Source of the DNA: Ostreococcus lucimarinus
Taxonomy: Eukaryota
Assembly: GCA_000092065.1 (NCBI GenBank)
Contig: CP000601.1
DNA: 64,000 bases
Reading direction: 5' to 3' (one strand)
Notes under the pieces: model-generated
The model's input: the letters and a program-made list of their open reading frames with translations, nothing else
What the model was told of the DNA's origin: nothing
The model's database searches: none
Made by a program: the position numbers and the translations under genes
Shown here: in pieces, positions 6,972 through 52,300 of the stretch
Position numbering within the stretch: position 1 is the stretch's first letter
Layout: each line of letters begins with the position of its first letter

Positions 6972-7232
6972 TGAGTTAAGGAAGACTGTTTATGCATACG
7001 CACAACATCGCGGACATTCGACTGCCCATGCTCTTTATTTCGAGGCTTAACTCGGCGAGGTGGACGAATAATTGGTATTATACGTCGCTCGATGGTGGGT
7101 TTGCGACAGATCTTCGCGGCTTGACGCCGTCGATCCGCGATCGCGAATGTTACAGGTTGAGGGCTCGGGCGAGGACGTCGGTGGTTTTCGCGCGTTCGTT
7201 CGTTCGTCGTCACTCCGCGGTCGAATCCATCG

Positions 7233-14188: not shown

Positions 14189-14493
14189 CGTTCCCGTTCG
14201 CCTCGCGCGCGTCCTCGCGCGTCGTCGACGCGCGCGCCGTTCGATTCGCATTCGCTTCATTTTCATTTTTCGCATTCGCGCGCGTGACGGCGACGCCGTC
14301 GTCTCCCGCGTCGTCGTCGCCTCGCGTCGCGCGTCTCGGCGCGGGCGCGCGCGGGGACGGGCGATCGACGTCGCGCGGCGTCGGCGGCGACATCGCGCGT
14401 CTCCCGCGTCCTCGAGCGTCGCGTCGTGCCGACGCGCGCGCGCCGTCTCCGGGCGCGCGTGGCGCCCAAAGGTCACGTCGCGCGTCGAAAGTT

Positions 14494-28066: not shown

Positions 28067-30365
28067 ATGACGCGCGGTGACGGCGCGCGCGACGGCGCGT
28101 CGACGCCGCGCGCCATCGGGCGCCTGCCGAGCGACGTCGTCAATCGCGTCGCCGCGGGAGAGGTGCGTCGAGGGCCGGCGCGCGACGGCGCGCGCGATGA
28201 GAGATTGAATGTTTGAACGTCAGCTCGACGACGGACGACGCGAACGCGCGACTGACGACGCGAGACGACGCGACGACCGAACGCGCGCGCAGGTGATCCA
28301 TCGACCGTCGAACGCGCTGAAAGAGCTGGTGGAGAACTCGTTGGACGCGGGCGCGAAGTCGATCGCGGTGACGACGAGGGAGGGCGGGAATAAACTGTTG
28401 CGAGTGCAAGACGACGGACACGGAGTGCGAATAGAGGACTTGCCGCTGCTGTGCGAGCGACACGCGACGAGTAAGATTGAAAAGTTTGAGGATTTAGCGC
28501 GATGCGAGAGCTTTGGGTTTCGAGGAGAGGCGCTGGCGAGCATGAGCTACGTGGCGCACGTGTCGGCGACGACGATGGCGGCGGGGGCGACGCACGCGAC
28601 TCGAGCGACGTATACGGATGGGAAGATGGATGCGGAGGGGGCGAAACCGATCGCGGGGGTGTTAGGAACTACGATTAGCGTGGAGAACTTGTTTTATAAC
28701 GTCGTGACTCGAAGGAAGGCGTTGAAGAGCGCGTCAGAGGAGTACTCGAAAGTGCTCGAGGTGTTGCAGAGGTACGCGGCGTTGCGAACGGATGTGGCGT
28801 TCACGTGTCGGAAGCACGGTGAGTCGCGAGCGACGTTGCACACTCCCGTGGCGCAATCGCGCGTCGAGCGGTTGCAGGCGATTTACGGTCCCACGGTGGC
28901 GAGAGATTTGAAGAAGCTCGACTTCGACAGCGAGCTGTCCAAGAAAAAGTTTGATTTCAAGCTGCAAGTGGACGGTTTAGTGAGCGGTGGGAATTATCAT
29001 TCAAAGAAGACGACGTTCATTTTGTTCATCAATTCGCGTTTAGTGGAGTGCGCGCCGCTCAAGCGCGCGTGTGAGTCGGTGTACGCGGCGATACTCCCCA
29101 AGGCTGAGAAGCCGTTTGTATTCATGCACCTCCGCCTGCCGTTTGAAGACGTCGACGTCAACGTGCATCCCACGAAACAGGAGGTGCACTTTCTGCACCA
29201 AGAAGCCATTGTGGAGTTGATTCAGTCCAAACTAGAGAAGATTCTTCTCGCGACGAATTCGTCGCGAACATTCACCGTGCAAACACTGCTTCCTGGCGCG
29301 GAGAAACTGGCAAAGAAGGATGACGAAAACGACGCCGAGCGAAGCGGCGACAAGGAAAATAGCGAAAAAGCGGACGAACCGCCGGCGTCGCAGGCGAAGA
29401 CGATGCGGACACAGCGCGAACGCGCGGGTGGTGATCACAAGCTCGTTCGCACGGATGCGAATTTAGCAGCGGGGAGTTTGGACGCGTACTTGCAGCGAGC
29501 GATGAATTCCGAGGGACGCGAACACGAGAAAATAGAAGAGGTTCGACGCGCGGTGAGAGAGCGTCGAGGACAGCGCACGGAACCCGAAGACACGTACGTG
29601 TGCGAGTTGACGTCTATTCGCCAGCTTAACACCGAAATCGCCAATCGCGCGCACAAGGAGCTCGGCGACGTGATTAAAAATCACACACTCGTCGGCGCCG
29701 TGGACGCGCGCAAAGGCGTGTGGTTACTTCAGCACCAAACCAAGCTCTTCATGGTGGACGCCGTAAAGCTCACCGAGGAAATGTTCCATCAAATGGCTTT
29801 GAAGAACTTCGCCAACTTTGGGTACCAATCGCTGCAAGATCCCGCGTCTTTGGCCGAACTCGCGCTGTGCGCGCTGGAGGATAAATTCGTCGACGACGAA
29901 GAGTGGGACGCGAGCGATGGCTCCAAGGAGGAAGTCGCAGAGAAAATCGCAGAGATGCTCGTCGAAAAGGCGGACATGCTCAAGGAGTATCTCGGCGTCG
30001 TCATCGACAAGGAACGGCGTCAGATCACCGGAGTGCCGTCGATGCTTCCCGGGTACGCGCCGGAAATCGGCAAACTTCCCGAGTTCGTCCTCGCCCTCGC
30101 CGAAGACGTCGATTGGACGAGTGAAAAAGAGTGCTTCGAAACCTGCGCTCGAGTCATCGGCGCATTTTTCGCCATGGACTGCTCTTTCCACGATCCGAAA
30201 GCCGAAGAAGGCGACGCCGAGTCCGACGCTCGTCGCGTCGCTCGCCTCTGCGTCTTTCCCGCGATGAAGCGCCGTCTCGCCCCGCCTCGTCGTTTCGCCG
30301 ACGACGGCACCGTCATTCAGATCGCGTGCCTCGAGCAGTTGTACAAAATTTTCGAGCGCTGTTAG
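28067..30365 (+). CDS. MLH1: DNA mismatch repair protein MLH1 (2 exons: 28067..28162 and 28293..30365)
   Basis: Exon 1 encodes MTRGDGARDGASTPRAIGRLPSDVVNRVAAGE and exon 2 VIHRPSNALKELVENSLDAGAKSI..., matching the MLH1 N-terminus (I.RL...VVNRIAAGEVIQRP.NA.KE..EN.LDA). GHKL ATPase motifs and an MLH1 C-terminal domain follow. Confidence 0.9.
28163..28292 (+). other. MLH1: Spliceosomal intron of MLH1 (130 nt, GTGCGT...CAG)
   Basis: Removing it joins ...AAGE to VIHRP..., restoring the conserved MLH1 N-terminal motif in frame. Confidence 0.85.
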
Positions 30366-30717
30366 TCGGTCCGCGTCGTCGTCGTCGCCCTCGAACGGCG
30401 TCGGCGTTCCGAATCGTCTCGCGGCGCGTCGCCCGGTCGTAAAGCTTGAAATCGTGAACCAACCAGCCGTTCGATTCAACCGACGCGCGTCGACCGCGCG
30501 CGCCTCGGTCGTCACTCCCGCGCGCGCCACCGGCTCGACGGACGGACCGACGCGACCGACGCGACCGACGCGCGCGTTCGAATCGTGCATGCGCGCCGCG
30601 CGTCTCGTCGCCGCGCGCGTCGCCGCGAGAACGCCGACGTCATCGCGTCGCCTCGCCGCTCGAAAACTCAAAACGACGACCCGCGCGCGCGACGCCGCGA
30701 TCGCCGAGCGAGCGAGC

Positions 30718-32702
30718 ATGACGACGGGCGAACGCTCGAACGCGTCGAAGCTCGCGGCGGTGCGAGAGGCGATGGCGAAGCGAGGGGTGCGAGCGGTCGT
30801 CGTGCCGTCGCAGGATCCGCACTTTAGGCGCGTCGGCGAAGCGAAGGCGAACGAACGAAACGAGGAACGACGACGCGCGCGACGGGAAAGACTGACGAAC
30901 GGGCGAGGGCGTGTTTTTGTGGGGAACGCAGTGAGTACGTGGCGGCGTGCTTCGAGCGACGACGATGGTTGAGCGATTTTACGGGGTCGGCGGGGACGGT
31001 GGTGGTGACGGACGCGGCGGCGTTGTTGTGGACGGATGGACGGTATTTCGTGCAGGCTGAAGACGAGCTGAGCGAGGACTGGACTCTGATGCGAAGTGGG
31101 GTGAAGGATGTGCCGGACGTGAAGAAGTGGTTGTGCGCGGAGGAGGCGGGACTGGCGTTTACCGGAGCCAAGGTGGGCATCGATCCAAACGTGCACTCGG
31201 TGAGCGAGGCGCGAGGTTTGAGAGAAGCGTTGAGCGCGTGCGGGATCGAGTTGATGAGCGTCGAAGAGAACTTGGTAGATTTGGTTTGGAGCGATCGTCC
31301 ACCGTTCCCGAAGACGCCGCTCAGAGTGCACCCGATGGAGTACGCGGGGAAGAGCGTGGCGGAAAAATTGGAAAACCTTCGAGAAAAAATGAAGGAAAAC
31401 GACGCGCAGAAGCTCGTCGTGAGCTCGTTGGATGACGTCATGTGGCTATGCAATGTTCGAGGCGGTGATGCACCGTGTAATCCGGTGACGTTGTCTTACG
31501 TCTTGGTGGGTGAAAACGACGCTTCGTTTTACGTCGACACGGACAAGGCGACGCCTGAAGTCGTGGCGCATCTCGCCGAGGCAAACGTGACGATCAAGCC
31601 GTACGAAGACATGGCCAAAGACGTGTATGCCGCGGCACAGCGCGGTGAGCGACTCTGGATGGACGTCGATAAGGTCTCCATCGCCATGCTCGAACAGGCT
31701 GAAGCCGGAGCCGCCGAAGCGCCCAAGGATGCGAAAAAGGTGAAGACGGAGAGCGCGCCGTCCGCCATCAAGGAGGGCACGTGTCCGGTCCCGATCGCAA
31801 AGGCGGTGAAGAATGAGGCCGAGATGGCCGGTATGGTCGAAGCCCACCTCATGGATGGCGCTGCGATGGCTGAATTCTGGTGCGCGATCGAGCGAGACGT
31901 CGCCGAGGGGCGCGCCATTGACGAGTACGAAGCTGGCGAGAGGGTCTTGGCGTGCCGAGCCAAGCAAAACGGTTTCTTCGAAGAATCGTTCCCGACGATC
32001 GCGGGTGAAGGTCCTCATGGCGCCGTGGTGCACTACCGTGCTTCGAAAAAGAGCGCGAGGGCTATCGGTAAGGACAGCTTATTACTCTGCGACAGCGGCG
32101 GCCAGTACGCGTGTGGCACGACGGATGTCACTCGAACGGTGCACTTCGGAACGCCCACCGCTCATCAAAAGGAGTGCTACACGCGCGTGCTCCAAGGTCA
32201 CATCGCACTCGACCAAATGGTTTTCCCTGTCGGCACGAAAGGTTTCGTTCTCGACGCCTTTGCGCGATCGCACCTGTGGGCCAACGGCTTGGATTACCGT
32301 CACGGCACCGGCCACGGCGTCGGCGCGGCGCTCAACGTGCACGAAGGTCCGCAAGGAATCTCTCCGCGTTTTGGAAACATGACGCCCCTTATGCCAGGAA
32401 TGATCTTGAGCAACGAGCCGGGGTATTACGAAGACGGTGCGTTCGGTATCCGCATCGAGACGCTTCTGCAAGTGAAGGAGGCGAAGACTGCGCACAACTT
32501 CGGAGACACTGGATTTTTATGCTTTGACGTCTTGACGTTGATCCCGATTCAAACGAAACTCATGGACTTGAGCATTATGAGTGAAAAAGAAATCGCGTGG
32601 GTGAACGCGTATCACGAAAAAGTTTGGCAACAAATTTCCCCGCGAGTGTCGGGGGAGACTAAAACGTGGCTCGAACGCGCGTGTGCAAAGATTTCCAAGT
32701 AG
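30718..32702 (+). CDS. Xaa-Pro aminopeptidase P (M24B; 2 exons: 30718..30827 and 30932..32702)
   Basis: Exon 1 ...VVPSQDPHF joined to SEYVAACFERRRWLSDFTGSAGTVVV matches the APP N-terminus (PSGDAHQSEYIA..DCRR.F.SGF.GSAGT). Creatinase_N/M24 core with metal ligands (HGTGHGVG, NEPGYYEDG). Confidence 0.85.
30828..30931 (+). other. Candidate GC-AG intron of the aminopeptidase P gene (104 nt, GCGCGT...CGCAG)
   Basis: This is the only splice that restores the conserved PH-x-SEY junction in frame. The donor is GC rather than GT, and the remaining donor positions match the GYGCGT pattern of the other introns. Confidence 0.55.
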
Positions 32703-32883
32703 GCGGCGTAGATTTACGTGTTTTAATTTGATGTTGAATTCGAGGTTGTTTTCGGCGAAAATTTGAATGCGTCTCTCGTTACAACTTTATTTTAGGATCA
32801 CATTCGTTCGTTGAACACAAAAGTATGGTACGACGTATTTTCTCACTGGGACTCTATACCGCTAAGATCAAGAAGCAAAGGCT

Positions 32884-34287
32884 TTAGATGGCCTTGTACT
32901 CAACCTTGGTGATCTTACCCAACATGACGGCGGTGTTACCGTCCAAGAAAGCGATGCGGGAAAGACCTTCGCACTTCTTGAAGGAGTCGACGACGAGCGG
33001 GTGGACCGGCTCGAAGACGCACTCGGCGACTTCGTTGGACTTCAACGACATCGGGGACTCGAGCTTCTTACCGCCGGTTTCCTTGCCAACCTTGAAGTTG
33101 AGCGCGGTCAACTTGCACGCGGAGCGGCCGCATCGGACGAAACCGATGGGGCTGTAGCCCGCCTTGAGTTCACCCGGAATGTCCAAGGTTTGGATTTGCG
33201 CGGTGAACTCCTTGCACGGGGCGAGGGAGGTGTCCTTCTTGTAGATCATCACGTCACCGGTGCGCGGCATGTTGAGCTTGTCGAGACCCTTGATGTTCAT
33301 ACCGACGTTGTCACCCGGCGCGGCGGCTTCGACGCGCTTGTGGTGCATTTCGACGGTGAACACCTTACCACCGCACGGGTTGGAGGAGGTGTGGGTCGGG
33401 AGGAAGACGACGTCTTCACCCGGCTTGACGAGACCTTGCTCGACGCGACCGGCGAGGACATCACCGACACCCTTGATCTTGTAGACACCGGAAATCGGAA
33501 GGCGCATGGCGGCTTCCGTGTTGCGGTCCGGCTTGTCGACCATGTCGTTGAGGACGTTGAGGAGGCAGTCGATGTGGAACTTCTTGCCGCCGCCCATGTA
33601 GTCTTCGACGTCGACGCCGTTCCACCACGGCATCTTCGCGGACTTGGACAACAAGTTGTCGCCGTTCCAGCCAGAGATCGGGAGGACCGGGACGCTCTTC
33701 TCGACGTAATCCTTCTTCCAGCCGACCTTGATCAACATGTTCTTCATTTCGTTGCGAATTTCTTCGTAACGCTCTTGCTTGTAGCCAGCCATGTCGCAAT
33801 CCATCTTGTTGATGCCGCAAATGAGCTGCTTGACGCCGAGCAAGTTGAGAAGACGCGCGTGCTGGCGCGTTTGGCCTTGGACTTCACCAGCCTTGTGGTT
33901 ACCCTTTTGGATGGCGACCGTGAAGTTACCGTCCGCCGGCACCATGAGAAGCGCCACATCGGCTTGCGCCGCGCCGGAAATCATGTTCTTGATGAAATCG
34001 CGGTGACCCGGGGCGTCGATGATGGTGTAGTGCCACTTGTCCGTGAAGAATTCCTTGGTCGTGCAAGAAATCGTCACACCACGCTCACGCTCTTCCTTTT
34101 GGCGATCCATGTAGAACGCGAACGCGAAAGAAGACTTACCGAGCGCATCGGCTTCGGCGCGAAGCTTTTCGAGTTCGCGCTCCGGGATACCCCCGAGCTC
34201 GAATAACAAGCGACCGGTCGTCGTCGACTTACCGGAATCGACGTGACCGCAGATCACGATGGAAAGATGTTCCTTGCCTTCAGACAT
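32884..34287 (-). CDS. EFL: Elongation factor-like GTPase EFL (an EF-1alpha paralogue that replaces EF-1alpha in some lineages)
   Basis: GHVDSGKSTT, DAPGHRDF and NKMD GTPase motifs, plus EFL-specific blocks (MVPADGNFTVAIQKGNHKAGEVQGQTRQHARLLNLLGVKQLICGINKMDCDMAGY). Very strong codon bias, consistent with a highly expressed gene. Confidence 0.93.
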   Translation of the reverse strand: MSEGKEHLSIVICGHVDSGKSTTTGRLLFELGGIPERELEKLRAEADALGKSSFAFAFYMDRQKEERERGVTISCTTKEFFTDKWHYTIIDAPGHRDFIKNMISGAAQADVALLMVPADGNFTVAIQKGNHKAGEVQGQTRQHARLLNLLGVKQLICGINKMDCDMAGYKQERYEEIRNEMKNMLIKVGWKKDYVEKSVPVLPISGWNGDNLLSKSAKMPWWNGVDVEDYMGGGKKFHIDCLLNVLNDMVDKPDRNTEAAMRLPISGVYKIKGVGDVLAGRVEQGLVKPGEDVVFLPTHTSSNPCGGKVFTVEMHHKRVEAAAPGDNVGMNIKGLDKLNMPRTGDVMIYKKDTSLAPCKEFTAQIQTLDIPGELKAGYSPIGFVRCGRSACKLTALNFKVGKETGGKKLESPMSLKSNEVAECVFEPVHPLVVDSFKKCEGLSRIAFLDGNTAVMLGKITKVEYKAI

Positions 34288-34901
34288 TGTGCGTTTATTT
34301 CAACTGTTTCGAGCCACGCGCGCATCGTCAGTCCCCCTTCCTCTCGTCTCGCCTCGTCCCGCGTCCAAACCTCCCGCCATCGCGCCGCCATCGGATCGCG
34401 ATCGTCAACCTCGCCCCCCCCCCTCGCTCGCGACCCTCGCGCGCGTCCCGCGCCGCCCGATCCATCGCGCGCGTATTCCTCCCGATCGTTTCCATCCGCG
34501 ACCGACGCCTCGCGCGTCGCATCGCGGCGTCACCGCGTCCGATCGTCGTCCGCGCGCCGTCCGCGATCGATCGTCGTCCGCGATCGATCGCGCGGCGCCC
34601 GCATCGCCTCGCCCTCGCGTCGTCGCGCGCCCTCGCGCGCGCGCCGCGACGCGCGCGAATATTTCCCACCGCCGCGTCCGTCGATCGCCGTCGCGCGCGC
34701 GTCGTTCGCCGCGCGCGGGCGCACCTTTGACCGTCGAAGAATGGCGCCGCCGCCGTCCTGGGGTCTTCGCGAGGATGCGTCGACGCGTGCGTTTCGTCGA
34801 CGGTTCATGACTCAAGAGTATGTGTCTTCGTATGGGTAAACAGTGTGAGTATCAGCAGAACGCCGCCCAGCCTCGACGGCCCGCGCGGCGGACGCCGCAG
34901 C

Positions 34902-35894
34902 ATGGCGCGCGCGCGCGCCGACGCGCGCGACGCGCGCGCGAGCGATTGGCGCGCGTTCGTCGCCGGCGTCGCGGGCGGCGCGTCGAGCACGCTCGCGCTG
35001 CACCCGCTCGACGTCGTGAAGACGCGGCTGCAGGTGCAGGACGACCCGGACGCGCGACGCGCGCGGTACGCGGGCGCGTGGCGAGGCGCGCGACGGATCG
35101 TCGCCGAGGAAGGCGCGCGCGGGATCTACGCGGGCGCCGCGCCGGCGATCGTCGGGAGCGCGGTGAGCTGGGGGGCGTATTTCGCGTGGTACGACGGCGC
35201 GCGGGCGCGGTACGCGGACGCGCTCGGACGAGAGCGAAACGGGGCGCTGCCGGCGGGCGCGAACATGATGGCGGCCACGGAGGCGGGGGTGGTGACGACG
35301 GTGCTGACGAACCCGATTTGGGTGGTGAAGACGCGGTTGCAGTTGCAGAGAGGAGGAGGATTAGGGGACGCGGCGAGCGAAGCGGCGAAGAGCGGCGAAA
35401 AGCGATACGCGGGATTCGTCGACGCGTTGGCGACGATCGCGCGAAAGGAAGGGTTGAGAGGGTTATACAAGGGACTCGTGCCGTCGATATGGCTCGTCTC
35501 GCACGGTTCGATACAGTTGACGGCGTACGAGTGGTTGAAGGAAATCGCGGCGAGCGGCAGAGCGAGACGCGCGCGAGGGGGCGCGGCGGACGTCGCCCCG
35601 GTCGAGGCTGGCGCCCTGGGCTTGGCGTCGAAATTCATCGCCGTGACCGCGACTTATCCAATTCAAGTCGTGCGCGCGCGCATTCAACAGCGCTCGGACG
35701 TCGGTAGACCCGCGGACGCCCCGACGTACGCGCGCTTCGGCGAAGCCGTCTCGCGCACCTTCGCTCGCGAGGGCGTTCGCGGCTTCTACAAGGGCTTCGC
35801 CCCCAACGTCGTTCGCGTGTTACCGAGTTCGGCCATCACGTTCGCCGCGTACGAGGGCGTTTTAGGCGTATTAAACGACGATCCCGTCGCGTAG
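34902..35894 (+). CDS. Mitochondrial carrier family protein (folate/FAD/NAD-transporter-like)
   Basis: Three Mito_carr repeats with signatures PLDVVKTRLQ, NPIWVVKTRLQ and YPIQVVRARIQ. Confidence 0.85.
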   Translation: MARARADARDARASDWRAFVAGVAGGASSTLALHPLDVVKTRLQVQDDPDARRARYAGAWRGARRIVAEEGARGIYAGAAPAIVGSAVSWGAYFAWYDGARARYADALGRERNGALPAGANMMAATEAGVVTTVLTNPIWVVKTRLQLQRGGGLGDAASEAAKSGEKRYAGFVDALATIARKEGLRGLYKGLVPSIWLVSHGSIQLTAYEWLKEIAASGRARRARGGAADVAPVEAGALGLASKFIAVTATYPIQVVRARIQQRSDVGRPADAPTYARFGEAVSRTFAREGVRGFYKGFAPNVVRVLPSSAITFAAYEGVLGVLNDDPVA

Positions 35895-35920
35895 CGTAGC
35901 GTAGCGTAGCGTAGCGTAGC
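35891..35920. repeat. (GTAGC)5 pentanucleotide microsatellite at or after the carrier stop codon
   Basis: cgtagcgtagcgtagcgtagcgtagc. The first TAG unit is the stop codon of the carrier gene. Confidence 0.9.
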
Positions 35921-36003
35921 CGTTTGCAACGCGTCCTCGCGCGAGGGCGCCTCGAAACGACGATTGGCTTCGCCGACCGACGCCTCGCGCACTTCGCGAC
36001 GCG

Positions 36004-37260
36004 ATGTCGCGCGCGCCCGACGTCGCGAGCGAGCGACGCGACGCGTCGCGCGTGTCCATGCCGTTCGCGCCCGGCGCGATCCCGCGAAGCGAGAGCTACG
36101 ACGCGTTCGTCGCGTCGGTGCCCGACTCGCGCGCGTCGCCGGTGAAATCGCTCGCGCGCGCGCGCGATGCCTCCGCGAGCGCGACGACGGGCGACGACGA
36201 GCGACCGCGCGTGATGCTGCTCCACTGCGGCGGCACGCTCGGGATGGGGGTGGAGTCGTTCGAGCTGCGAGAGGCGGACGTCGTCCCGCGCGCGGGTGGC
36301 AAGTACAGACCGCTGGGGGCGTCGAAATATCTGTTGGACGTGCAGGAGGTGATACCCGAGCTGCGAGATTTCGCGCGGCTGGACGTGGAGGTGTTGATGA
36401 ATAAAGACTCGAGCGAGATGGACGGAAAGGATTGGGTGACGCTCGCGCGGGCGCTGCACGAGAGGAGGGAGGAGTACTCGGCGTTCGTCGTGGCGCACGG
36501 AACGGATACGATGGCGTACGCGGCGAGCGCGCTGTCGTTGATGCTGGTTGGGTTCGGAAAGCCGATCGTGTTGACGGGCTCGCAGTTGCCTCTGTCGTTC
36601 GCGCGATCGGACGCGCGCCAAAATTTGATTGACGCCCTGACGTGCTGTTGCGCGAGTCGAAGCTGCGGAGGTACCGTGGATTTCGCGGAGGTGGCGATTT
36701 GTTTCGGCGGTAAGCTTTTACGCGGGAATCGCGCGTCAAAGACGAGCGCGACGGTGTACGCGGCGTTTAGTTCACCTTCGTATCCAGCGCTCGCGAGATT
36801 AGGAGTGGGGGTCGATTGGAACCACGCGCGTTTGTTACGGCCGGCGCCAGAGTACGCGCCGCAATTTGAGTTGAATTCGAACGTCATACGCGTCCCGGTG
36901 ATTCCTGGCTTAGACATCGAAAAGGCGTACGGCGATTTGTACGGTCGAGGCGTGCGAGGCATCATCTTGGAAGCGTTCGGCGTGGGAAACTTCCCGCAGA
37001 GCCTCGTCCCTTGGCTCACCAGCCAAGCGTCGCGCGGATTGCAAATCTACCTATCGACGCAGTGTCAAAGCGGCGAATTACGACCGGAGCTCTACGCCGC
37101 CGGTCTCGGCGCGTTAGCCGTAGGGGCCAAATCTGGCCCGGTCATGACCAGCGAGTGCGCCGTGGTCAAAATGATGCTCCACATCGCGAATCCCGAGCTC
37201 GAGCTCCACGTATCGTACTCTGGCGAAGCCGGCGACGTCGATTTTTGCGACATCAAGTGA
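36004..37260 (+). CDS. L-asparaginase (type I/cytosolic; N-terminal domain of 60-kDa lysophospholipase type)
   Basis: VMLLHCGGTLGM (Thr catalytic motif), VVAHGTDTMAYAAS and KPIVLTGSQLP. Confidence 0.8.
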   Translation: MSRAPDVASERRDASRVSMPFAPGAIPRSESYDAFVASVPDSRASPVKSLARARDASASATTGDDERPRVMLLHCGGTLGMGVESFELREADVVPRAGGKYRPLGASKYLLDVQEVIPELRDFARLDVEVLMNKDSSEMDGKDWVTLARALHERREEYSAFVVAHGTDTMAYAASALSLMLVGFGKPIVLTGSQLPLSFARSDARQNLIDALTCCCASRSCGGTVDFAEVAICFGGKLLRGNRASKTSATVYAAFSSPSYPALARLGVGVDWNHARLLRPAPEYAPQFELNSNVIRVPVIPGLDIEKAYGDLYGRGVRGIILEAFGVGNFPQSLVPWLTSQASRGLQIYLSTQCQSGELRPELYAAGLGALAVGAKSGPVMTSECAVVKMMLHIANPELELHVSYSGEAGDVDFCDIK

Positions 37261-37518
37261 CCGCTCGCGCCTCGTTCCACGCACTATCCAAACCTAAAAG
37301 TAGCCCTTTTAATTTTAGCCACCGCGCGCCGAATCGACCGACCGCGCCGGCGTCGGGGCCACGGTCAAAATCGCGAACCGCCGCTGGACTCGCGAATGGC
37401 GACTTTGGATGGATGACTTTGGTCGGCATCAGATCGCGACGCGTCCACGACGCACGCGCGCATCGATCTCCCTTTGGACGCGCACACGCGCGCGTGAACG
37501 TGATCCCACGCCGTCGCG

Positions 37519-39286
37519 ATGTCGCTCAAGTCCATCAACCCCAACGCCGAGCTCATGAACGCCGATGCCGCGCTGTTCATGAACATCAACGCCGCCAAGG
37601 GTCTCCAAGACGTGATGAAGACGAATTTAGGCCCGAAAGGGACGATCAAGATGCTCGTCGACGGTGCTGGAGGTGCGTGTACGATCGTTTCGTCGATACA
37701 TCGCGGTTTCGCGCGTCACGGCGGCGCGTGAGAGATGCGCGGTGACGGTGATCTGTTGGATTTCGCGCGAACGCGGCGCGGCGTTGACTCTGTTGACCGA
37801 ACGACTGACGGCGATGTTGAAATCGATGTGCGTAGGTTTGAAGCTCACGAAGGATGGGAACGTGCTGCTGAGAGAGATGCAGATTCAAAACCCGACGGCG
37901 ATCATGATCGCGAGGACGGCGGTGGCGCAGGATGATATCACCGGGGACGGGACGACGACGACGGTGCTCGTCATCGGAGAGTTGTTGAAGCAAGCGGAGC
38001 GGTATTTGAATGAGGGTTTGCATCCGAGAGTGATCGTGGAGGGATTCGATGTGGCGAAACGCGAGTCGCTGAAGTTTTTGGAAACGTTCAAGCGCGCGGC
38101 GCCGGGTGTGGAAGCGCCGGATCGAGAAATGTTGTTGTGCGTGGCGCGCACGGCGTTGCGAACAAAGTTGCGGGAAGAGTTGGCTGATAAGTTGACGACG
38201 ATCGTCGTCGACGCTGTGTTGTGCATCGCCAAACCGGAAGAGTCGATCGATTTGCACATGGTGGAGATCATGACCATGAAGCATCAGACGGATGACGAAA
38301 CCAAATTGATTCAGGGTTTGGTCCTCGACCACGGGGCGAGACATCCGGATATGAAGAGATACGTGGAGGACGCGTTCGTGTTGACGTGTAACATCAGCCT
38401 GGAATACGAACGATCGGAGGTGAACTCGACGTTCATGTACACCGATGCGGAACAGCGCGAGAAGATGGTCGCCGCCGAGCGCGCGTACACCGATGAAACC
38501 GTGCGCAAGGTGATCGCGCTCAAGAAGCAGGTGTGCGACGGCAACGACAAGGGTTTCGTCGTCATCACACAAAAGGGGATCGACCCAATCTCTCTGGACA
38601 TGCTCTGTAAGGAAGGCATTATGGGACTTCGTCGCGCCAAGCGCCGAAACATGGAGCGTCTCGTCCTCGCATGTGGTGGTCAATGCATCAACTCTGTTGA
38701 GGAACTCTCGCCGGAAATTTTGGGCCACGCCGGCGAAGTGTACGAGTACGTCTTGGGCGAGGAAAAGTACACTTTTGTGGAAAAAGTCGTCAACCCGACG
38801 TCGTGCACGGTACTTTTAAAAGGCTCGAACGATCACACCATCGCACAGCTCAAGGATGCGGTGCGAGATGGCTTGCGGGCGGTGAAGAATGTGTTGACCG
38901 ACAAGGCCGTGGTTCCGGGCGCGGGTGCGTTTGAGATGGCCTTGAACAAGCACTTGAAGGAGAACGTCACCAAGATGGTCGAAGGTCGCGCGAAACGCGG
39001 CGTCGAGGCGTTTGCGGAAGCCATGCTCGTGGTCCCGAAGACACTCGCGGAGAACAGCGGTTACGATCCGCAAGACGCCATCATCGACATGCAAGAGGAG
39101 CACGACAGAGGCAACGTCGTCGGTTTCGATATCAGCATCGGCGAGCCCTTCGACCCCACCATGAGTGGTATCTACGACAACTTTCTCGTCAAACAGCAAA
39201 TTCTGCACTCTGCGCCCATCATCGCCACGCAGTTACTCTGCACGGATGAGGTTCTCAGAGCGGGCGTGAACATGCGCAAGCGATGA
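37519..39286 (+). CDS. CCT6: T-complex chaperonin subunit zeta (CCT6; 2 exons: 37519..37672 and 37836..39286)
   Basis: Exon 1 [51 protein letters not shown], joined after a G codon to [40 protein letters not shown]..., aligns colinearly with CCT6. Confidence 0.9.
37673..37835 (+). other. CCT6: Spliceosomal intron of CCT6 (163 nt, GTGCGT...GTAG)
   Basis: The splice restores ...[15 protein letters not shown], which is conserved in CCT zeta. Confidence 0.85.
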
Positions 39287-39324
39287 TCGACGCGAGTCAG
39301 AAACTTATAGAATTTAGTGGTGGT

Positions 39325-39336
39325 GCGTACGCACGT
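39325..39336. repeat. 12-bp perfect palindrome GTGCGTACGCAC between the convergent CCT6 and fibrillin 3' ends
   Basis: Self-complementary 12-mer in the 95-bp space between the two stop codons. Confidence 0.5.
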
Positions 39337-39380
39337 ACGTAGTAGCAGCGTGTGTGAATCTACAAGGAAAGAATTGCTAA

Positions 39381-40340: not shown

Positions 40341-40366
40341 CGCGCGCGATCGTATTCTCGACGCGA

Positions 40367-41302: not shown

Positions 41303-41460
41303 CGCCGCGCGCGAGATGACAACCACCACTAGCTACGGTGGGTGCGTGTAAAACTAAACAGCGCAGCGCGACGCGATTCGACGCGACGCGCGCGCTCGAA
41401 TCGAGACGAGCGTCTCTCGGCGCCGCCGCCGCCCTCGCGCGTCACTTCGAGCCCGCCCGC

Positions 41461-42610: not shown

Positions 42611-42658
42611 TTAAAATCGACAACAAATTGTAGGAGACGCGGCGAAGATAATCAGCCA

Positions 42659-43651: not shown

Positions 43652-43860
43652 GGCGCTTCGTTGGACGACGTCGACGACGGTCGGGCGCGATCGCGCGCGC
43701 GACGCGACGTCGCGGCGGAGTGACGACTTTATCCACTTCGCTCGGGACACTTTTCGGCGCGACTCCGAGGCGCGACGCGCACGTCGCGACGCGCCGACGC
43801 GCTTCGACCGGTCGCGCGCGCGCGGACGAGCGACGATAGACGCGGGCGATCGTCGAGACG

Positions 43861-44505
43861 ATGCCGGCGCCGACGCGACCGCCGACGCGACACCACCACT
43901 TCGAGACTGGGACGTACAAACCGAGCGGGCTGTTCCTGCCGGACGACGAGTACGGACGCGCTTTGGACGCGCTGGTGAAGGGCTGCGTCGATTGCTTGCT
44001 GACGAACGAAAAGGGAGAGGTTTTGCTCGGGCTGCGCAAGCACGAACCGGCGAAAGGGACGTGGTGGTACATCGGTGGACGGATGCGCACGGGGGAGACG
44101 GTGGAGGAGACGGCGAGACGGCACGCGAAGCGAGACATCGGGATCGAGATCGACACGGAGCGGTTTCGATTCGTGACCACGAGCACGATGAATTGGGAAT
44201 TTCGAGTGCAGGAGCCGGCGGGGAACGGGACGTGCGATATTAACGTGGTCCTCGCGGCGACGCTGACGGAGGAGGAAATCGCGCGCAAGACGATGTGCGC
44301 CGACGAATATTTAGATCAAAAATTTTGGTCCGTGGAGGACATCTTAGCCGTGACGGACGAAAAAGTGATTTTACCGCCGATTCACATCTCTGCAAAGAAA
44401 ATGGTGTGGTCTGAACGCGAGGATGCGATGTACGCGGCGGTGGCTCGCGGCGCGGACGACGCGGAAATCGCCCGACTCGCGCGCCGCGCGTACGAGTTCG
44501 CGTGA
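43861..44505 (+). CDS. Nudix hydrolase
   Basis: Nudix box GGRMRTGETVEETARRHAKRDIGI (Gx5Ex7REUxEExGU). Confidence 0.75.
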   Translation: MPAPTRPPTRHHHFETGTYKPSGLFLPDDEYGRALDALVKGCVDCLLTNEKGEVLLGLRKHEPAKGTWWYIGGRMRTGETVEETARRHAKRDIGIEIDTERFRFVTTSTMNWEFRVQEPAGNGTCDINVVLAATLTEEEIARKTMCADEYLDQKFWSVEDILAVTDEKVILPPIHISAKKMVWSEREDAMYAAVARGADDAEIARLARRAYEFA

Positions 44506-44726
44506 AGCGTTCGACGTGGCGGACGCGGGCTTTCGCGAAGCCATAGTTAGACGCAATTGTTTTAATGATTGATGCGCAAATGTTTTCGTGTTGTTACACT
44601 AACTGACTAAGTAAGAAGTCTTCGATCATCGTCGTGAAAATTGGCGCGGCGGAGCGCACATCGTTAGCGCTGCCCATCCTTGCTTGAAAAAATGTTGTTT
44701 GTTTATCTTTGTCCGATATCGTTCGA

Positions 44727-45383
44727 TTAGAACAGCGCGGAGCCGCCCATGATCTTTTCGACGATCGGCAACGCGACGAGACCGATCATCGCACCGCGAC
44801 CGTTCGTCATCTCCGCCTCCGCGCGGAACGGCCCGAACGCCTCGGGCGCCTCGTCCAAGCCGTTCGGCGACGACTTCTTGAGCGCCGGCGCCAAAGAGGA
44901 CGCCAAGGTCAAGATCACGCAGGCCGGCACGAGGAAGAACCCGGCCGCCGGGTACGTGGACGTGCGCGTGATGCCGTCCGCGAGCGTGAACGTGCGTTCG
45001 TTGAACAATTGGTGCATGAAGCTCGTGTTCGACGTCAGCTCCACGTAGAGCGCCGCCGTCCACCCAATCATCGCCGCGCGACCGTTGATCGTCTCCACCG
45101 CGCGCGAGTCCTTGAACGCGAGCATGACGGAGTCGAGCATGGAGTTATCGTTCCCGAGCGGCGCCGCTTCGGCGATGGAGCCGTCGGCCGGGTCGATCGC
45201 GTCGACGCGCATCGTCGGCTGCTTGGACGCCGCGTCGGCATCCTTCCACTCGGAGTTCGCCTCTTCGACCGCCTTGGAGACGTCGTTTTCGGCGCGGACC
45301 GCGACGGAGGCGCGGCGGTGCGCGCGCTGCGTCTTGACGACGGCGCGGGCGGCGAGTTGGGGGCGAGTCGTGACGGCGAACAT
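44727..45383 (-). CDS. Light-harvesting-like (ELIP/SEP-type) two-helix chlorophyll-binding-motif protein, plastid-targeted
   Basis: Two copies of the LHC motif ExxNGRxAMxG (ETINGRAAMIGW and EMTNGRGAMIGL). Basic N-terminal presequence. Confidence 0.6.
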   Translation of the reverse strand: MFAVTTRPQLAARAVVKTQRAHRRASVAVRAENDVSKAVEEANSEWKDADAASKQPTMRVDAIDPADGSIAEAAPLGNDNSMLDSVMLAFKDSRAVETINGRAAMIGWTAALYVELTSNTSFMHQLFNERTFTLADGITRTSTYPAAGFFLVPACVILTLASSLAPALKKSSPNGLDEAPEAFGPFRAEAEMTNGRGAMIGLVALPIVEKIMGGSALF

Positions 45384-45766
45384 GTCGTGCGTGCGTGTGC
45401 GAGAGTGACGCGATGCGGCGCGCCGTCGACGGTGACGTCGAATTTTGTCATTTTCGCGCGTCACTGTTTACGCATACGAGCGGTCGGTCGCGCGACACGA
45501 ATCGTCGACGTCGACGGTTCGCGCGTGACGTCACGCGACCGCGCGACGAAACGCGCGGTCGCCGCGGTCGACGCGGTCGACGCGCGCGCGGTCGGAGGCG
45601 AGGCGTCGGCGTCGGCGTCGCGCGCGACGCGCGAAGCCCGCGGGGCGCGCGGCGAAGGGCGCGGCGAGACGCGACGGTGCGCGCGACGACGCGATGGACG
45701 CTTTATGACTTTATGGGTCCTCGGGACGAGGGGGCGAATGTTACAAGTTTGAGCGATGCGCGCGAT

Positions 45767-47947
45767 TCATCGCCCGTCGCAGACGTCCGCGACGTCGTCC
45801 GGTCGTCCGACGATGACGTCTTCGCGGTCGATGGTGACCATGCCGAGCCTGGCGCCCTTGGGCTTTTTCACGTACTTAGGAGACGTGTACGAAACGTTGA
45901 CTTTGCCGCCCGTTCTCACTTTCGAATGAAAGCTCGCGACGTTGGCGGCGAATTGGATGTCGTCGTCTGAGGCGGTTTCGCCTGGTTGTTGGCGAAGGAT
46001 GACGTGCGCGCCCGGGGCGCCGCGAACGTGAAACCACACGTCTTGGTCTTGTCCGAAGAAAAGCGAAACCGCTTCGTTTCCGCGGCTATTTCTTCCGCAG
46101 TACACCTCCTTTCCACTCGGCGCGGTATAGATGCGAATGGCGTTCATCATCTCTTGCTTACGCGCTTGCTTACCGGTTTTCGGCTTCGCGCCGCCGCCCT
46201 TCTTCGCCGCCGCCATCGCGCGCGTCTTCGCGTCGGCGCCCTTGCCCGTGGGCTTTAAGAATCCACCGTCCACGAGTTCGGCGCCAATTTCCTCGATGAA
46301 CAATAAATCGTCGCGCGATTTGAACTCGCTGACTTCGAGAATACTAAATTCGACGCCCTCTAAATACTCAATCTCGCTCGCATTTTGTTCGATGAGCGGC
46401 TCGACGGCGTCGGCGGTGCGACGCAGCTTTCTCGTCTTTTTGTACAGCGCCTCGGCGGTGCCCACAGGACCTTTCTCGGGATCTACTTTAAACATCACTG
46501 TCTCGCCCGTGGTGAAGTCTTGACCCTCAAGCTCGCTCGAACCAGGCTTATAGTTGTAACTGTACGCCATCAACGCGTCGGCGAGCAGTTGAATTTCTTC
46601 GTGCCCGCTCGCCGCCTCTAATTGCTTGCGGAACCCAACGTCTTTGCTCGCCAACTTTTTCAGACGCGCGCGCACGGCTTGTAAAATGCGCGAGCGTTCG
46701 CGCTCGAACACGTCGGTTTCGCCCGCTTCGCCGTACACAGCGCCGAAAAGAGCGCCGATCGGCCCGCCGGCAACGCTCAAATCGTCGGCGGCGGGCGGCA
46801 AGACGACGCCCGCGGACGACGGGTGCAATAACAACTGCCCGAACTCTTCGCACCACGTGGCGTTTGCGAGCGTACCCGCACTGTCGGCATCACTTGAAAC
46901 GCTCGCAATCCATCGCATGAACTCATCGTACACGGCGACCCAATCGCTCGCACTCGCGGTTTCGACGCGCTCGCCATCGGCGACGCCCGCGCCGCGAATC
47001 AACGCCTTGGCCAAAGCCGGTGACACCCCTCGAAACGCGCGCACCATGCACTCATCCAAACGCGCTTCGCCCATATCACCACTGCGACCGCGTGCGACGT
47101 CGCGCAACACCGCGGTCCATCCGTCCACGCCCCCTTCAACCCCGGTCGTGGGATCGATCCCGGGCGCCGAGGGCGGCGGCTCGTACGCGTACCCGATCGC
47201 CAATCGCCGCACACTCGTCTGTTTCTCCCCAACCTGATACCCACACGCTAAAACTTCATCATTATTTTTACTATCAAGCAAGAACGCGTTGCTGTACCGC
47301 CCCATGACCTCACACAACAGCTCGTACTCTGCCTCACCTCCCGGCCTATCGCCGAATCGCAACCGACACGCGCGTTCCCACGCCGTCCCCACGCGCGCAT
47401 CCAGCAGCACCTTCCCCTTGAGCAGCGCGTTCGCGCTCTCGCCAAAACTAAGATTCATCCCCTTCTCCACCTTGGCCCCGCGCGCGCTCATCGCGACGTG
47501 CGCGGTCACCGGGTGCCAACTCACTCGCACGCTCCGCCGTCCATCCGCCGCGCGCGCGTCCAGCGTCATCGAGTGCGCGTCCACCTGCGCGCACGCGTCG
47601 ATCTTCACCGGCGTCGACAGCGCGTTTATCTCCCGCACGCTCGCGACGAGGGCGGTGTAATCGAACGTCGCGGGCGTCGCGCGCGCGGCGCGAACGACGA
47701 CGAGCGAGCGGCGGTGACGCGGCGACGGCGCGCGCCGCGGCGACGCGAGCGACGCGATGCGCCAACGCGCGCGCGCGGGGATGCGTGACGCGCGGTACAT
47801 GACGCCGAGCGCGGGCGCGGGCGGGCCGCGGGCGCGCCGCGGGCGGACGCGCGCGAGGGAAAGTGAGGACGCGGCGCGAGCGGGACGCGAAGCGTCTCGG
47901 CGAAAGGTTCGGCGCGCGAATGAATATCTGGCGATGAGCGTTGACAC
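45767..47947 (-). CDS. NFACT-family protein (RqcH/NEMF/Tae2/FbpA-like)
   Basis: NFACT-N/FbpA region plus an NFACT-R (DUF814) block DVWFHVRGAPGAHVILRQQPGE...NVASFHSKVRTGGKVNVSYTSPKYVKK. Confidence 0.8.
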   Translation of the reverse strand: MSTLIARYSFARRTFRRDASRPARAASSLSLARVRPRRARGPPAPALGVMYRASRIPARARWRIASLASPRRAPSPRHRRSLVVVRAARATPATFDYTALVASVREINALSTPVKIDACAQVDAHSMTLDARAADGRRSVRVSWHPVTAHVAMSARGAKVEKGMNLSFGESANALLKGKVLLDARVGTAWERACRLRFGDRPGGEAEYELLCEVMGRYSNAFLLDSKNNDEVLACGYQVGEKQTSVRRLAIGYAYEPPPSAPGIDPTTGVEGGVDGWTAVLRDVARGRSGDMGEARLDECMVRAFRGVSPALAKALIRGAGVADGERVETASASDWVAVYDEFMRWIASVSSDADSAGTLANATWCEEFGQLLLHPSSAGVVLPPAADDLSVAGGPIGALFGAVYGEAGETDVFERERSRILQAVRARLKKLASKDVGFRKQLEAASGHEEIQLLADALMAYSYNYKPGSSELEGQDFTTGETVMFKVDPEKGPVGTAEALYKKTRKLRRTADAVEPLIEQNASEIEYLEGVEFSILEVSEFKSRDDLLFIEEIGAELVDGGFLKPTGKGADAKTRAMAAAKKGGGAKPKTGKQARKQEMMNAIRIYTAPSGKEVYCGRNSRGNEAVSLFFGQDQDVWFHVRGAPGAHVILRQQPGETASDDDIQFAANVASFHSKVRTGGKVNVSYTSPKYVKKPKGARLGMVTIDREDVIVGRPDDVADVCDGR

Positions 47948-47977
47948 GCGCGCGCGTTCGTTCGGTCGGTCGTTTGT

Positions 47978-49108
47978 CTAGGATGTCTTGGCCGATTTCG
48001 GGGTGACTTCCTCGGCGCGCGTCTCGCGAAGGAAGACGCGGTCTTCGGGCTTGTTGTTCTCTCGCTCTTCGTGCGCGTACGAAGACGCGATGGCGAGCAA
48101 GGACCCACAAGGACTGAAAGCGAGCGCTGAGATGGAGGTGGGGTAGCGGGGCGACTGAAAAAGTCGCTTTTTAGCGTCGCCATCCCAAAAATTGACGTAA
48201 CCGTCGCCGCCGCCCGTGGCGAATGTGCCGTGGACGGGATGAAACGCCACCGCGTGGACGGGATAAACAATCTCACCCACGCTCGCGTCATCGGTTTTGC
48301 GATGACACTTGAACGCATATTTTCGCTTGTCGTTCTCTTCATCGCGTATGAACTCCACCGCTACGCGTCCCTCGACGCTCGCGGCCACGAATCCATCGCC
48401 TCGGATATTTGCTGCGATGGCGCGCGTTTGAAACCGCATGCTCGAACGTCTATTTATCAACGGACGCGGCGGCGCTTCCGACGCGCGTCGTCCGTCATCA
48501 CCATCCACACCGCGCACTAAATCTCGCGTCTCGTACGCCAAAACTTGCCCATCGCTCGTCGCCACGAAAATCTTACCGTCTCTCAAATCCGCCGCGTAGC
48601 ACTTCCCAGCCGTCTTCGTCGTCGACACCGCGCGCCCTCGCTCGTCCTTCGTCAAATCCCACGCCCTAATCGTTCGATCCCAGCCAAACGTAAACAATTT
48701 CTTCGTCGCATCATCGTACTCCACCGCCGACACCGCGCCGTCGTCGTGCGCGCCGACGACGCGAAACGCGCCAGTTTTAAAATCGACGAGGCGCACCGAC
48801 CCGTCGAGGCATCCCACGCACGCCGCGTCCTCATCCGTCCCGACGAACGTCCCGCACAGCGCGGGCGCGCCCAAATCGATCGAGTTCAACGATTTCACGT
48901 CCCCGATCTCGCGCGCGCGGCACGCGTACCGCCGCGCGGTCCCGTCCCAGGACGTCACCAGGAGCGTCAACCGTCGCGCCATCCCATCGTCGTCGTCGTC
49001 GCGACCCTCTCCCGCGCTGACCGCGCAGAACCGCACCGCGCTGACGCCGTCGCCGAACGCCGCGCCTCCGGCCCCTCGCACGTCGCGACCGAGGTCTCGA
49101 TGCGCCAT
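47978..49108 (-). CDS. BUB3: Mitotic checkpoint protein BUB3 (WD40)
   Basis: YAFKCHRK...VYPVHAVAFHPVHGTFATGGGDGYVNFWDGDAKKRLFQSPRYPTSISALAFSPCGSLLAIASSY...EDRVFLR matches the BUB3 C-terminal blades almost motif for motif. Confidence 0.85.
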   Translation of the reverse strand: MAHRDLGRDVRGAGGAAFGDGVSAVRFCAVSAGEGRDDDDDGMARRLTLLVTSWDGTARRYACRAREIGDVKSLNSIDLGAPALCGTFVGTDEDAACVGCLDGSVRLVDFKTGAFRVVGAHDDGAVSAVEYDDATKKLFTFGWDRTIRAWDLTKDERGRAVSTTKTAGKCYAADLRDGKIFVATSDGQVLAYETRDLVRGVDGDDGRRASEAPPRPLINRRSSMRFQTRAIAANIRGDGFVAASVEGRVAVEFIRDEENDKRKYAFKCHRKTDDASVGEIVYPVHAVAFHPVHGTFATGGGDGYVNFWDGDAKKRLFQSPRYPTSISALAFSPCGSLLAIASSYAHEERENNKPEDRVFLRETRAEEVTPKSAKTS

Positions 49109-49324
49109 CGCGCGCGCGCGTCTCGCGCGCGCACCGCGCGCGCGTCCCGACCGTCACCGCGACGACGTCGTCGTCGCCCGCGCGCGCATCGGTTTATCGC
49201 CGATCGACGACGGTCAAACGCGCGTTCGGGCGCCGTCTCGATCCATGTGCGATCGCGATGACGCGCGCATAAATAATCATCGCCGCGACCGAACGCGCAT
49301 TGCGACGCGCGCGAACGCCGTGTC

Positions 49325-52300
49325 GTGCGAGCGCGTCTCGCGCGGGCGTCGCGCGCGCACCGCATTTCGCGACGGCGGTCGATGCGGGCCCCGTCGCGCG
49401 CGCCGTGCGCGTCCGCGCGCCCGGAGGCCGGCGTCGTCGACGCCCTCGATGATCTCGCCGCCGTCGACGCCCGCGCGTGCGGCATCGGCAAGCTCACGAT
49501 CGCGCACGACGACGACGACGACGACGCGCGAGGTCTCCGCCATCGCGACCGCGGCGCGTTCGCCCTCGATTTGCGCGCGTGGTCGTTCACCGCGCGCACG
49601 CAGCCGGTCCGCGCGCTCGGGGCGTGCGCGCGAGACGCGTCCGTCGACATGCGCGTGCCGTTCAGGGACGAATACGAGCGACACAGGGCGTCGCGACCGG
49701 ACGAACGCGCGCCGCGAGGGGCGAGTTGGCGCATCCATCGAGTGCGAGGATGGCGCTTCGACCTGCGCGCGCTGTACGAGGAGGTGAAAAGACGCGGTGG
49801 CGCGGACGCGATCGATGGAAATCAAGGCTGGCGCGAGGTCGCGGAGGCGATCGGGGCGCACGGACGCGGATGCGCGGCGGGACACGCGGCGAGAGCGCTG
49901 CACGGGGCGTGGCTGGAGGCGTTCGCGCGCGACGCCAAGCGAAGAGAAGACGCGGTGAAGAGCGCGCAGTTCGACGCGGTGAAGGGAGAGATCGAACAAG
50001 ATGACGCGCTGGCGATCGATGCGCTGTGTGGGCTCGAATTTGGGGCGTCGGGCGCGCCCGAACGGCGAGTCAAGGTGGAAAATGTGCGTAATTCGTGCCA
50101 TATCTTCTTCGCGCGGGACCGGGATGACGGCGAATCGCACGCGTTCGCGGCGCGTGCGACGCGCGCGCGCGATGATGGGCGTCGCGATGACGTGCGACTG
50201 ACTTTTACGGCGCGTGTTTTCGCGACGCAGGGCCTCGATCTCGTCGCCTCGCAGCTCGCGGACGCGCCCGAGGGCGACGCCGACTGCGACGTGTGCGGCG
50301 CGAGCGGGAACGAAGACGCGATGATCCTGTGCGATGGGTGCGATCGAGGGTGCGTATACGACAATGCCACGCGAGAACGCGCGCGTGAAAATTATCTCGA
50401 TCGTTCGGACGCGCGTTCGGGGAGAGAGAGCGCTCGCGCGGCGCGCGAGGGCGCGGCGAACGCGCGCGTGGGCGACGGTTAGACGTGGGGTTTAGAGGCG
50501 CGCGGGGGAGAAGGAGCCGCGAAGGAGCGACGAGACTGACGAATGATGCGCGCGTAGGTCACATATGTACTGCTTAACGCCGAAGATGACTGAAGTGCCG
50601 AGTGGAGAGTGGTTTTGTGGACGATGCGAAGAGATTGACGCGGAGGTGGAGCGATTGAGCGCGGATGAAGGGACGCAGTTTACGCTCGGCGATTTCAACG
50701 AGGCGTGCATAGAATTTGATACGGCGTTCTTTGGCGAGGACGCCAAGCGAACTGGGATCGATATGCAGGTGATTGAGGAGTGTTTCTGGCGAATGGTTGA
50801 AGATGCGAGCTCGGTGGATGATGTTTGCGAGGTCAAATGCGGCACGGCGATTGACACGACAAAGTACGGAAGCGGGTTCCCGAGACACGGCGAAGCGCTT
50901 CAGGTAAAGATTGACGGCGTGAGCCCGGAATCTATCAAGCGCTGGTCAGAGTCGAAATGGAATCTCAACAACGTCGCGCGCGCGAGTGGGGAAAAGTCGT
51001 CGCTACTGGGCGCGTTGAAGGATGACGTGGCGGGCGTGACGACGCCATTCTTAGAAGTCGGAAGCACGTTTAGTTCCACGACTTGGCGTCGAGAAGAGCA
51101 TAACATGTACAGTATCACTTACAATCACTGGGGTGCCGCGAAACTGTGGTACTGCGTGCCGGCGAGTGCAGCGGACAAGTTGGAAGAATGCTTCCAGAAG
51201 GTGATGCCCGACGTCTACGAGGCGCACGTCAACGATTTGGGAAGCGTCTTTACGATGCTCTCGCCGAGCTTCTTGATGAGCGCGGGAGTGCCCGTGCACA
51301 CGTTGGAGCAATTCCCAGGAGAATACGTGGTGACGTATCCCGGGGCGTACTACGCGTCGTTCAACTGTGGATTGAACTGCACGGAGAGCGTCAACTTTGT
51401 GCCCGCTGACTGGCTCCCAGAGGGCTCGGCGAGCGTGGAGAGAAACCGATCGTACGCCAAGCGTTCATTGTTTAGTCACGACGAGTTGGTTTGCAGAGTA
51501 GCAAACAATCCTAGTTCGAGCATAGCGCCGCACTTGTGGCCCGAGATTGCGCGCTTGTACGCTGAAGAGGCAAACGGTCGCGCCGAGCTTTTCGCGTCTG
51601 GCGTGACGCGCAGCGCGCAAATGACGTCAGCAGACGACGACGACGACGACGATGGCTGCGAAAAGCCTCGTAAAGTACGATCTAGGTTTGACGATGCATC
51701 GAACTCTGGATCCGATGAGTGCGTTGTTTGTCGACACATTTTGTACTCGTCTGGCGTCGGGTGCTCGTGCGACGAGACGCGCAAGGCGTGCTTGCGACAC
51801 GTCAACGACTTGTGCAAATGTGCGATGTCGAAGAAGACGATGTTTTACAGAGAAACAGTGGCTGATTTAGAAAGTCTGGTGAAGAAGACGGAGAAGGCGC
51901 TTTCTCAGAAGGAACTAGCCAGCTTAAAATCCAAGCACAGCGACTTGGACTCAGTCACAGTGAACAAGAATCTCGTCAAGAAGGCTCAGGCTTGGGTGAA
52001 ACGAGTGGGCGAAGAGCTCGTCAAACCACCTTTGCCGCCGCTGGACAAGATGAGAAATTTACTCGCTGCGGGTGAAGAGTTTATTTGGGGTGGTGCTGAT
52101 ATGAAGGCGGCTCGAGAAGCGTACACTCGCGTGACGAACGCCGTCGCGTGGCAGACGAGTCTTGTGGCGCTGAAGCAAAGGCTTGGATCCAGTGCTGGTG
52201 CCGAGGCCGCGCACGATGACGCTGGTGAAGCGCGATTGAGATTGAACAGACTAAAAGAGCTCCTTGACAACCCACCGGTACCGATGCCTAAGGCTGATAC

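Follow-up and report, generated by a model that had tools for sequence, protein, structure and literature searches.

The stretch of DNA analysed here, 64,000 nucleotides (nt) of Ostreococcus lucimarinus from contig CP000601.1 (assembly GCA_000092065.1) and called the window below, carries introns in the genes for MLH1, CCT6 and KDM5 that begin with the same hexamer, GTGCGT. The window has a GC content of 61% and about 34 genes, nearly all single-exon, with six to seven introns among them. Genes were defined by GC content at each codon position and by Pfam matches; scoring the open reading frames (ORFs) of the window by codon usage was too weak for this purpose. As the spliced MLH1 and CCT6 products are identical to RefSeq proteins of O. 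lucimarinus CCE9901, the window is nuclear DNA of this strain. The source record carrying the two proteins is 528,469 bp long, and the window is not from the low-GC, intron-dense half of chromosome 2. The introns of the three genes, with the first exons of MLH1 and CCT6, are:

28067..28162, + strand: MLH1 exon 1, 32 codons (MTRGDG...VAAGE)
28163..28292, + strand: MLH1 intron 1, 130 nt, phase 0, ending in CAG
37519..37672, + strand: CCT6 exon 1, 51 codons plus one base
37673..37835, + strand: CCT6 intron 1, 163 nt, phase 1, ending in TAG
50350..50557, + strand: KDM5 intron B, splitting the first PHD finger (PHD1), 208 nt, phase 2, ending in TAG

GTGCGT is found at exactly 28163, 37673 and 50350 on the + strand. 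The claim of a first-pass annotation, made from the sequence letters and their ORFs, that all three introns exist and start with this hexamer is borne out by RefSeq identity, reading frame and gapless homology. Splicing restores the conserved N-terminal and PHD motifs as proposed, giving products that align without gaps to solved structures of human MLH1, CCT6 and KDM5A, and the first exons or exon halves do lie outside the long ORFs, which start at 28209, 37664 and 50565. In MLH1, the intron reads GAG/GTGCGTCG ... CGACTGACG ... GCGCAG/GTG (slashes mark splice junctions), with the branch adenosine 37 nt from the 3' splice site. Exon 1 is outside the main ORF (28209..30365); the spliced protein of 722 residues equals XP_001421130.1 residue for residue, and its residues 16-126 align gapless to human MLH1 (4p7a) across VVNRVAAGE/VIHRP.

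The CCT6 intron, GAG/GTGCGTGT ... CGACTGACG ... GCGTAG/GTT, has its branch adenosine 27 nt from the 3' splice site. The spliced product (534 residues) is likewise identical to XP_001421126.1 at every residue, and residues 2-123 align to human CCT6 across the junction without gaps. In a transcript contig of 1895 nt (L001; Logan SRR847308_612), 37308..37672 is followed directly by 37836..39365, at 100% identity. This spliced contig confirms the junction 37672/37836 and proves that the CCT6 intron is removed from RNA.

KDM5 intron B reads AGG/GTGCGTAT ... AGACTGACG ... GCGTAG/GTC, with the branch adenosine 18 nt from the 3' splice site. It is used by XP_001421122.1, and the stretch from PHD1 to the JmjC domain aligns gapless to KDM5A (5ceh). 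The first-pass annotation had placed its end at 50556, one base short. That end would give GTA and a broken frame; the intron therefore ends at 50557, the only position that keeps the frame (CDGCDRG/SHMYCLTPKMTEVPSGEWFCGRC, i.e., SHMYCLTPK after the junction). The proposed range of 130-207 nt consequently has to be extended to 208 nt, while the coordinates and lengths of the MLH1 and CCT6 introns stand. With the KDM5 end corrected, all three introns end in YAG, as had been stated.

GTGCGT is a common hexamer, with 57 sites, though not an enriched one, since 69.6 would be expected in the window, and GC-rich sequence provides many alternative GT and AG sites. This is what would be needed if the boundaries had been chosen, in a circular manner, to fit the hexamer. 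Against such a coincidence, the junctions are base-exact by frame, gapless homology and RefSeq identity, and in CCT6 by transcript. GCGT follows only 0.73% of the GT dinucleotides in the window, so that the probability of three out of three independent, homology-fixed donors being GTGCGT by chance is p ~3.9e-7. The same consensus has moreover been published for O. lucimarinus from introns confirmed by expressed sequence tags (ESTs), and we give the coincidence next to no credence.

That GTGCGT is a constrained 5' splice-site consensus of this genome is indeed established. From 319 EST-confirmed O. lucimarinus introns outside chromosome 2, Irimia and Roy (2008; PLoS Genet 4:e1000148; PMC2483917) derived the atypical and very strong consensus GTGCGTG (4.8 bits, of 8), and they found ACTGAC in 87% and GACTGACG in 66.5% of the non-chromosome-2 introns; chromosome 2 introns have weak GTRNGT donors. 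For the canonical introns of Micromonas, Verhelst et al. (2013; PMC3879977) described an AG/GTGCGT donor and an NCTGAC branch. As both papers contain the consensus, known since 2008, the shared hexamer is a correct rediscovery of a published property.

MLH1 intron 1, CCT6 intron 1 and KDM5 intron B all carry GACTGACG shortly before the acceptor. With the GACTGAC/GACTGACG branch motif as an anchor, at least three further introns and one candidate were located:

50084..50230, + strand: putative KDM5 intron A, 147 nt, phase 0
30718..30827, + strand: aminopeptidase P exon 1
30828..30931, + strand: aminopeptidase P intron 1, a GC-AG intron starting with GCGCGT, 104 nt, phase 2
11924..14393, - strand: gene for an RRM-domain protein, with its N-terminal exon at 14160..14393
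13964..14159, - strand: intron of the RRM-protein gene, starting with GTGCGC, 196 nt, phase 0
34304..34724, - strand: candidate intron in the 5' untranslated region (5'UTR) of an EF-1alpha-like gene, donor GTGCGC, ending 16 nt before the ATG

KDM5 intron A, an addition to the first-pass annotation, reads AAT/GTGCGTAA (with a GTGCGT start) ... CGACTGACT ... ACGCAG/GGC, with the branch adenosine 29 nt from the 3' splice site. Because its length is a multiple of 3 and it contains no in-frame stop, it is translated in XP_001421122.1, adding 49 residues, and several relatives can be read in frame through the equivalent stretch. This would be expected if 50084..50230 were coding sequence. However, in ten related proteins conservation breaks at EN/VR, exactly at the GT, and returns at Q/GLD, exactly past the CAG. 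Between these points the length varies, and several relatives, including close ones, have frameshifts or stops (e.g., a TAA in L007); the sole conserved "residues" of the stretch are VR, encoded by the donor (GTRCGN), and LT, encoded by the branch site (CTGAC). Four syntenic relatives have the intron in the same place, with donors GTACGC, GTACGG, GTACGA and GTACGT and a conserved CTGAC branch. These comparative data support 50084..50230 as a probable intron missed by RefSeq and make a coding role unlikely.

A separate observation on the same gene concerns an in-frame TAG at 54222..54224 (+ strand), which splits KDM5/JARID1 into two ORFs sharing a frame (50547..54224 and 54225..56087). RefSeq lists the parts as separate genes (XP_001421122.1 and XP_001421121.1). 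The stop is directly followed by an intact PHD finger (FCLCRQ...CDDCGDWYHLKC...CPPC), and near-identical environmental relatives have CAG (Gln) at this position, within a single ORF of 1841 residues (P0065). An independent run assembly (Logan SRR1179203, L028) reproduces the TAG at 100% identity, which speaks for a genuine nonsense codon peculiar to this strain, or a site of read-through, and against an error of assembly.

The aminopeptidase P intron, TAG/GCGCGTCG ... AGACTGACG ... ACGCAG/TGA, has its branch adenosine 36 nt from the 3' splice site. Its removal restores VPSQDPHF/SEYV..RR..S.FTGSAGT, a motif that runs unbroken in homologues from algae and bacteria. Five related genomes, one of them only 93% identical, have the identical GC donor, which is therefore no sequencing error. 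Because the protein collection does not contain the spliced product of 626 residues, the reference model must be a different one.

In the RRM-protein gene, the intron reads AGG/GTGCGCGC ... AGACTGACG ... GTCGCAG/AGC and has its branch adenosine 34 nt from the 3' splice site. Two contigs from independent runs (L002 and L003, of which an RNA origin is not recorded) are without exactly these 196 nt and encode the spliced product of 757 residues (P0049). Downstream of the intron, over about 3.5 kb, they match the window at 99.97% identity, and in a short upstream block at 98-99%. The RefSeq entry is a partial protein of 183 residues, XP_001420989.1.

The candidate 5'UTR intron of the EF-1alpha-like gene reads AAG/GTGCGCCC ... 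GGACTGACG ... AAACAG/TTG, with the branch adenosine 24 nt from the 3' splice site. In related assemblies (L021, L024 and L026) this gene (32884..34724, - strand) is present in two copies on one chromosome of about 0.5 Mb; they encode an identical protein of 467 residues and have unrelated flanks. A GACTGAC with a YAG after it is retained shortly before the ATG of both paralogues, whose upstream sequences are otherwise unalignable; this suggests that each has an intron in its 5'UTR. In the relative L020, which is 93% identical, the putative exon 1 and the donor are conserved as well. The intron in the window is plausible but unproven.

Four of the six supported introns start with GTGCGT; the others depart from it by one base, at +6 in the RRM-protein gene (GTGCGC) and at +2 in aminopeptidase P (GCGCGT). 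The consensus is thus strong but not universal. All six fit G[TC]GCG[TC], five being GT-AG introns and one GC-AG, and in each the junctions restore the frame. All six also contain GACTGAC, with the branch adenosine 18-37 nt from the YAG, in five cases as part of GACTGACG. On both strands of the window (128 kb), GACTGAC is present at 8 sites, against 8.5 expected from shuffled sequence. Seven of these are at intron branch positions, and the motif is nearly absent outside introns. Its scarcity there may reflect avoidance of cryptic branch sites or an effect of codon usage. Minor, U12-type introns have an RTATCCTT donor and a TCCTTAAC branch, and the donors and branches of the window introns are of neither form.

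The hexamer had also been offered as a practical rule for annotating first exons. By itself it is no rule, as only 4 of the 57 GTGCGT sites are donors. Combined with ACTGAC and YAG, it finds four real introns in the window and no false ones, and one of the four was missed by the reference annotation. GTGCGT with CTGAC and YAG is also present at 10469 and 34787 and, on the - strand, at 12810 and 39334; these have GCTGAC, CCTGAC or TCTGAC, without ACTGAC, and were judged to be due to chance, the last of them also having almost no open reading frame on either side. A GACTGACG motif at 17439 (- strand), antisense to an acyltransferase gene, was dismissed. In a relaxed scan of the window (G[TC][AG]CG, CTRAC and YAG), GCGCG runs dominated the output, and no credible intron was added. 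The donor core followed by GACTGAC and YAG is the better rule. In the form G[TC]GCG[TC] ... GACTGAC ... YAG, it finds short first exons and in-frame introns missed by ORF tracks and by the reference annotation; in the window, the gains are the intron translated in RefSeq KDM5, the GC-AG first intron of aminopeptidase P and the full-length RRM protein.

In L020, the 93%-identical relative, no changes are seen in the exon flanks, the intron interiors contain substitutions and indels, and every branch motif is kept. Its MLH1 gene follows this pattern, with conserved exons, a diverged intron interior with indels, a GTGCGC donor and a conserved branch, and its CCT6 donor remains GTGCGTG. The KDM5 intron B orthologues of four relatives have the donors GTGCGC, GTGCGC, GTGCGT and GTACGT. 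Considering five versions of each KDM5 intron and two each of the MLH1, aminopeptidase P and CCT6 introns, G+1, C+4 and G+5 of the donor are constant, +3 is A or G, and +6 varies, leaving G-Y-R-C-G as the invariant core.

Introns with such similar ends could also have arisen from a mobile introner of the kind present in Micromonas pusilla CCMP1545, as copies of it, their ends being alike through shared ancestry; the identical ends, the similar sizes (104-208 nt) and the presence of introner families in that related genus (PMC3879977) would all fit. Yet the seven introns of the window are alike only in their splice motifs and in CG-rich runs of at most 21 nt. Four relatives, in which the flanking protein is just 44-52% identical and the intron interiors are unalignable, share the positions of both KDM5 introns, and the MLH1, aminopeptidase P and CCT6 introns keep their positions in the 93%-identical relative. 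All this argues for old, unique introns, and an introner origin is extremely improbable.

Strict splice signals are a general pattern of intron-poor eukaryotes. We consider it almost certain that the introns of the window are U2-type spliceosomal introns of an ordinary kind, belonging to the normal part of the O. lucimarinus genome outside chromosome 2. This intron-poor genome would then use an unusually strict, lineage-specific signal, made up of (A or G)G/GTGCGT(G) as donor, GACTGAC(G) as branch site and, 18-37 nt further downstream, a YAG acceptor. The donor would be read by a canonical U1 5' end (AUACUUACCUG, the O. tauri sequence), with predicted G-C, U-A and G-U wobble pairs at +1, +2 and +3, a mismatch at C+4, and G-C, U-A and G-U wobble pairs at +5, +6 and +7. 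The ACAGAGA of U6 would then take over at +5/+6, and the branch would pair with a canonical GUAGUA of U2.

Several points weigh against this interpretation. The small nuclear RNA (snRNA) sequences are those of O. tauri, not of O. lucimarinus, and C+4 mismatches canonical U1. The hexamer is not absolute, two supported introns starting with GTGCGC or GCGCGT. Transcript support was obtained for CCT6 only, and none for the MLH1, KDM5 A and B or aminopeptidase P junctions; an exact look-up of the spliced MLH1 protein in assemblies found no transcript contig. Neither the MLH1 exon-exon junction nor the predicted EF-1alpha-like 5'UTR junction was matched in scans of JGI metagenome contigs (0 matches each), a result that is uninformative because such transcripts may be missing from that collection. 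Homologue searches with the N-termini of MLH1 and aminopeptidase P found no near-identical transcript-derived proteins and served only to show that the motif is continuous.

The mismatch at C+4 means that simple U1 complementarity fails to account for the consensus. G+3 and C+4 both depart from the universal GURAGU, as would be expected if a co-evolved U1 snRNA, or a second spliceosome, had a 5' end complementary to GUGCGU. Irimia and Roy (PMC2483917) raised the possibility of a divergent U1 and noted that such snRNAs might have escaped detection. The expressed snRNAs of O. tauri are, however, all canonical: U1 starts with ATACTTACCTG, U2 has GTAGTA and U6 has ACAGAGA (PMC7671301, Supplementary File 2). 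Relatives, furthermore, use GTACG besides GTGCG at orthologous sites. C+4 is thus not explained by a co-evolved snRNA, which we regard as very improbable, and the O. tauri sequences answer, for a congener, the suggestion made in 2008. C+4 and G+5 are invariant in at least five Ostreococcus-like lineages, yet the U1 and U6 of the congener cannot pair with C+4. Tentatively, and with considerable doubt, recognition by something other than base-pairing with U1 may therefore set the consensus, such as a U1C or Prp8 protein contact or a non-canonical U6 contact specific to Mamiellophyceae.

Two further observations were made on the window. The proteins of the MLH1, CCT6, KDM5 and PHD-protein genes each have two GenBank/RefSeq accessions (e.g., ABO99419.1 and ABP01187.1), so the reference genome contains the region twice, in agreement with a reported chromosome built of duplicated parts of chromosomes 9 and 13. 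A tRNA gene at 6872..6985 (- strand; Rfam score 49 bits), with the anticodon loop CUGUUA, is apparently a tRNA-Asn(GUU) that is interrupted, just past the anticodon, by about 42 inserted nt. ARAGORN, as run on the window, reported no tRNA, although Rfam detects this intron-bearing one.

Among known systems, the introns of the window are closest to the published non-chromosome-2 introns of O. lucimarinus, with which they share the GTGCGT(G) donor, a GACTGACG branch near the 3' end, YAG, low intron density and a length of about 100-200 nt; nothing essential differs. To this class the window adds individual examples and the one-base variants GTGCGC and, in a GC-AG intron, GCGCGT, which fit a consensus of 4.8 out of 8 bits. 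The small introns of Ostreococcus chromosome 2 belong to the same genome and are presumably spliced by the same spliceosome, but they are densely spaced and 40-65 nt long, their GTRNGT donor is weak (1.9 bits) and they lack a clear branch motif, whereas those of the window are sparse, 104-208 nt long and strong in their motifs, in DNA of 61% GC, and do not belong to the chromosome 2 class. Saccharomyces, with GTATGT and TACTAAC, similarly combines a near-invariant donor and branch with few introns and canonical snRNA recognition sequences. It keeps U at +4, however, whereas the G+3/C+4 donor of O. lucimarinus is not complementary to U1 at +4. In Micromonas RCC299 and CCMP1545, the branch of the canonical introns is 43-52 nt upstream of the acceptor, compared to 18-37 nt in the window, and the genus has introner families, of which the window introns are not members; the AG/GTGCGT donor and the NCTGAC branch are nevertheless the same, making this a signal common to Mamiellophyceae.

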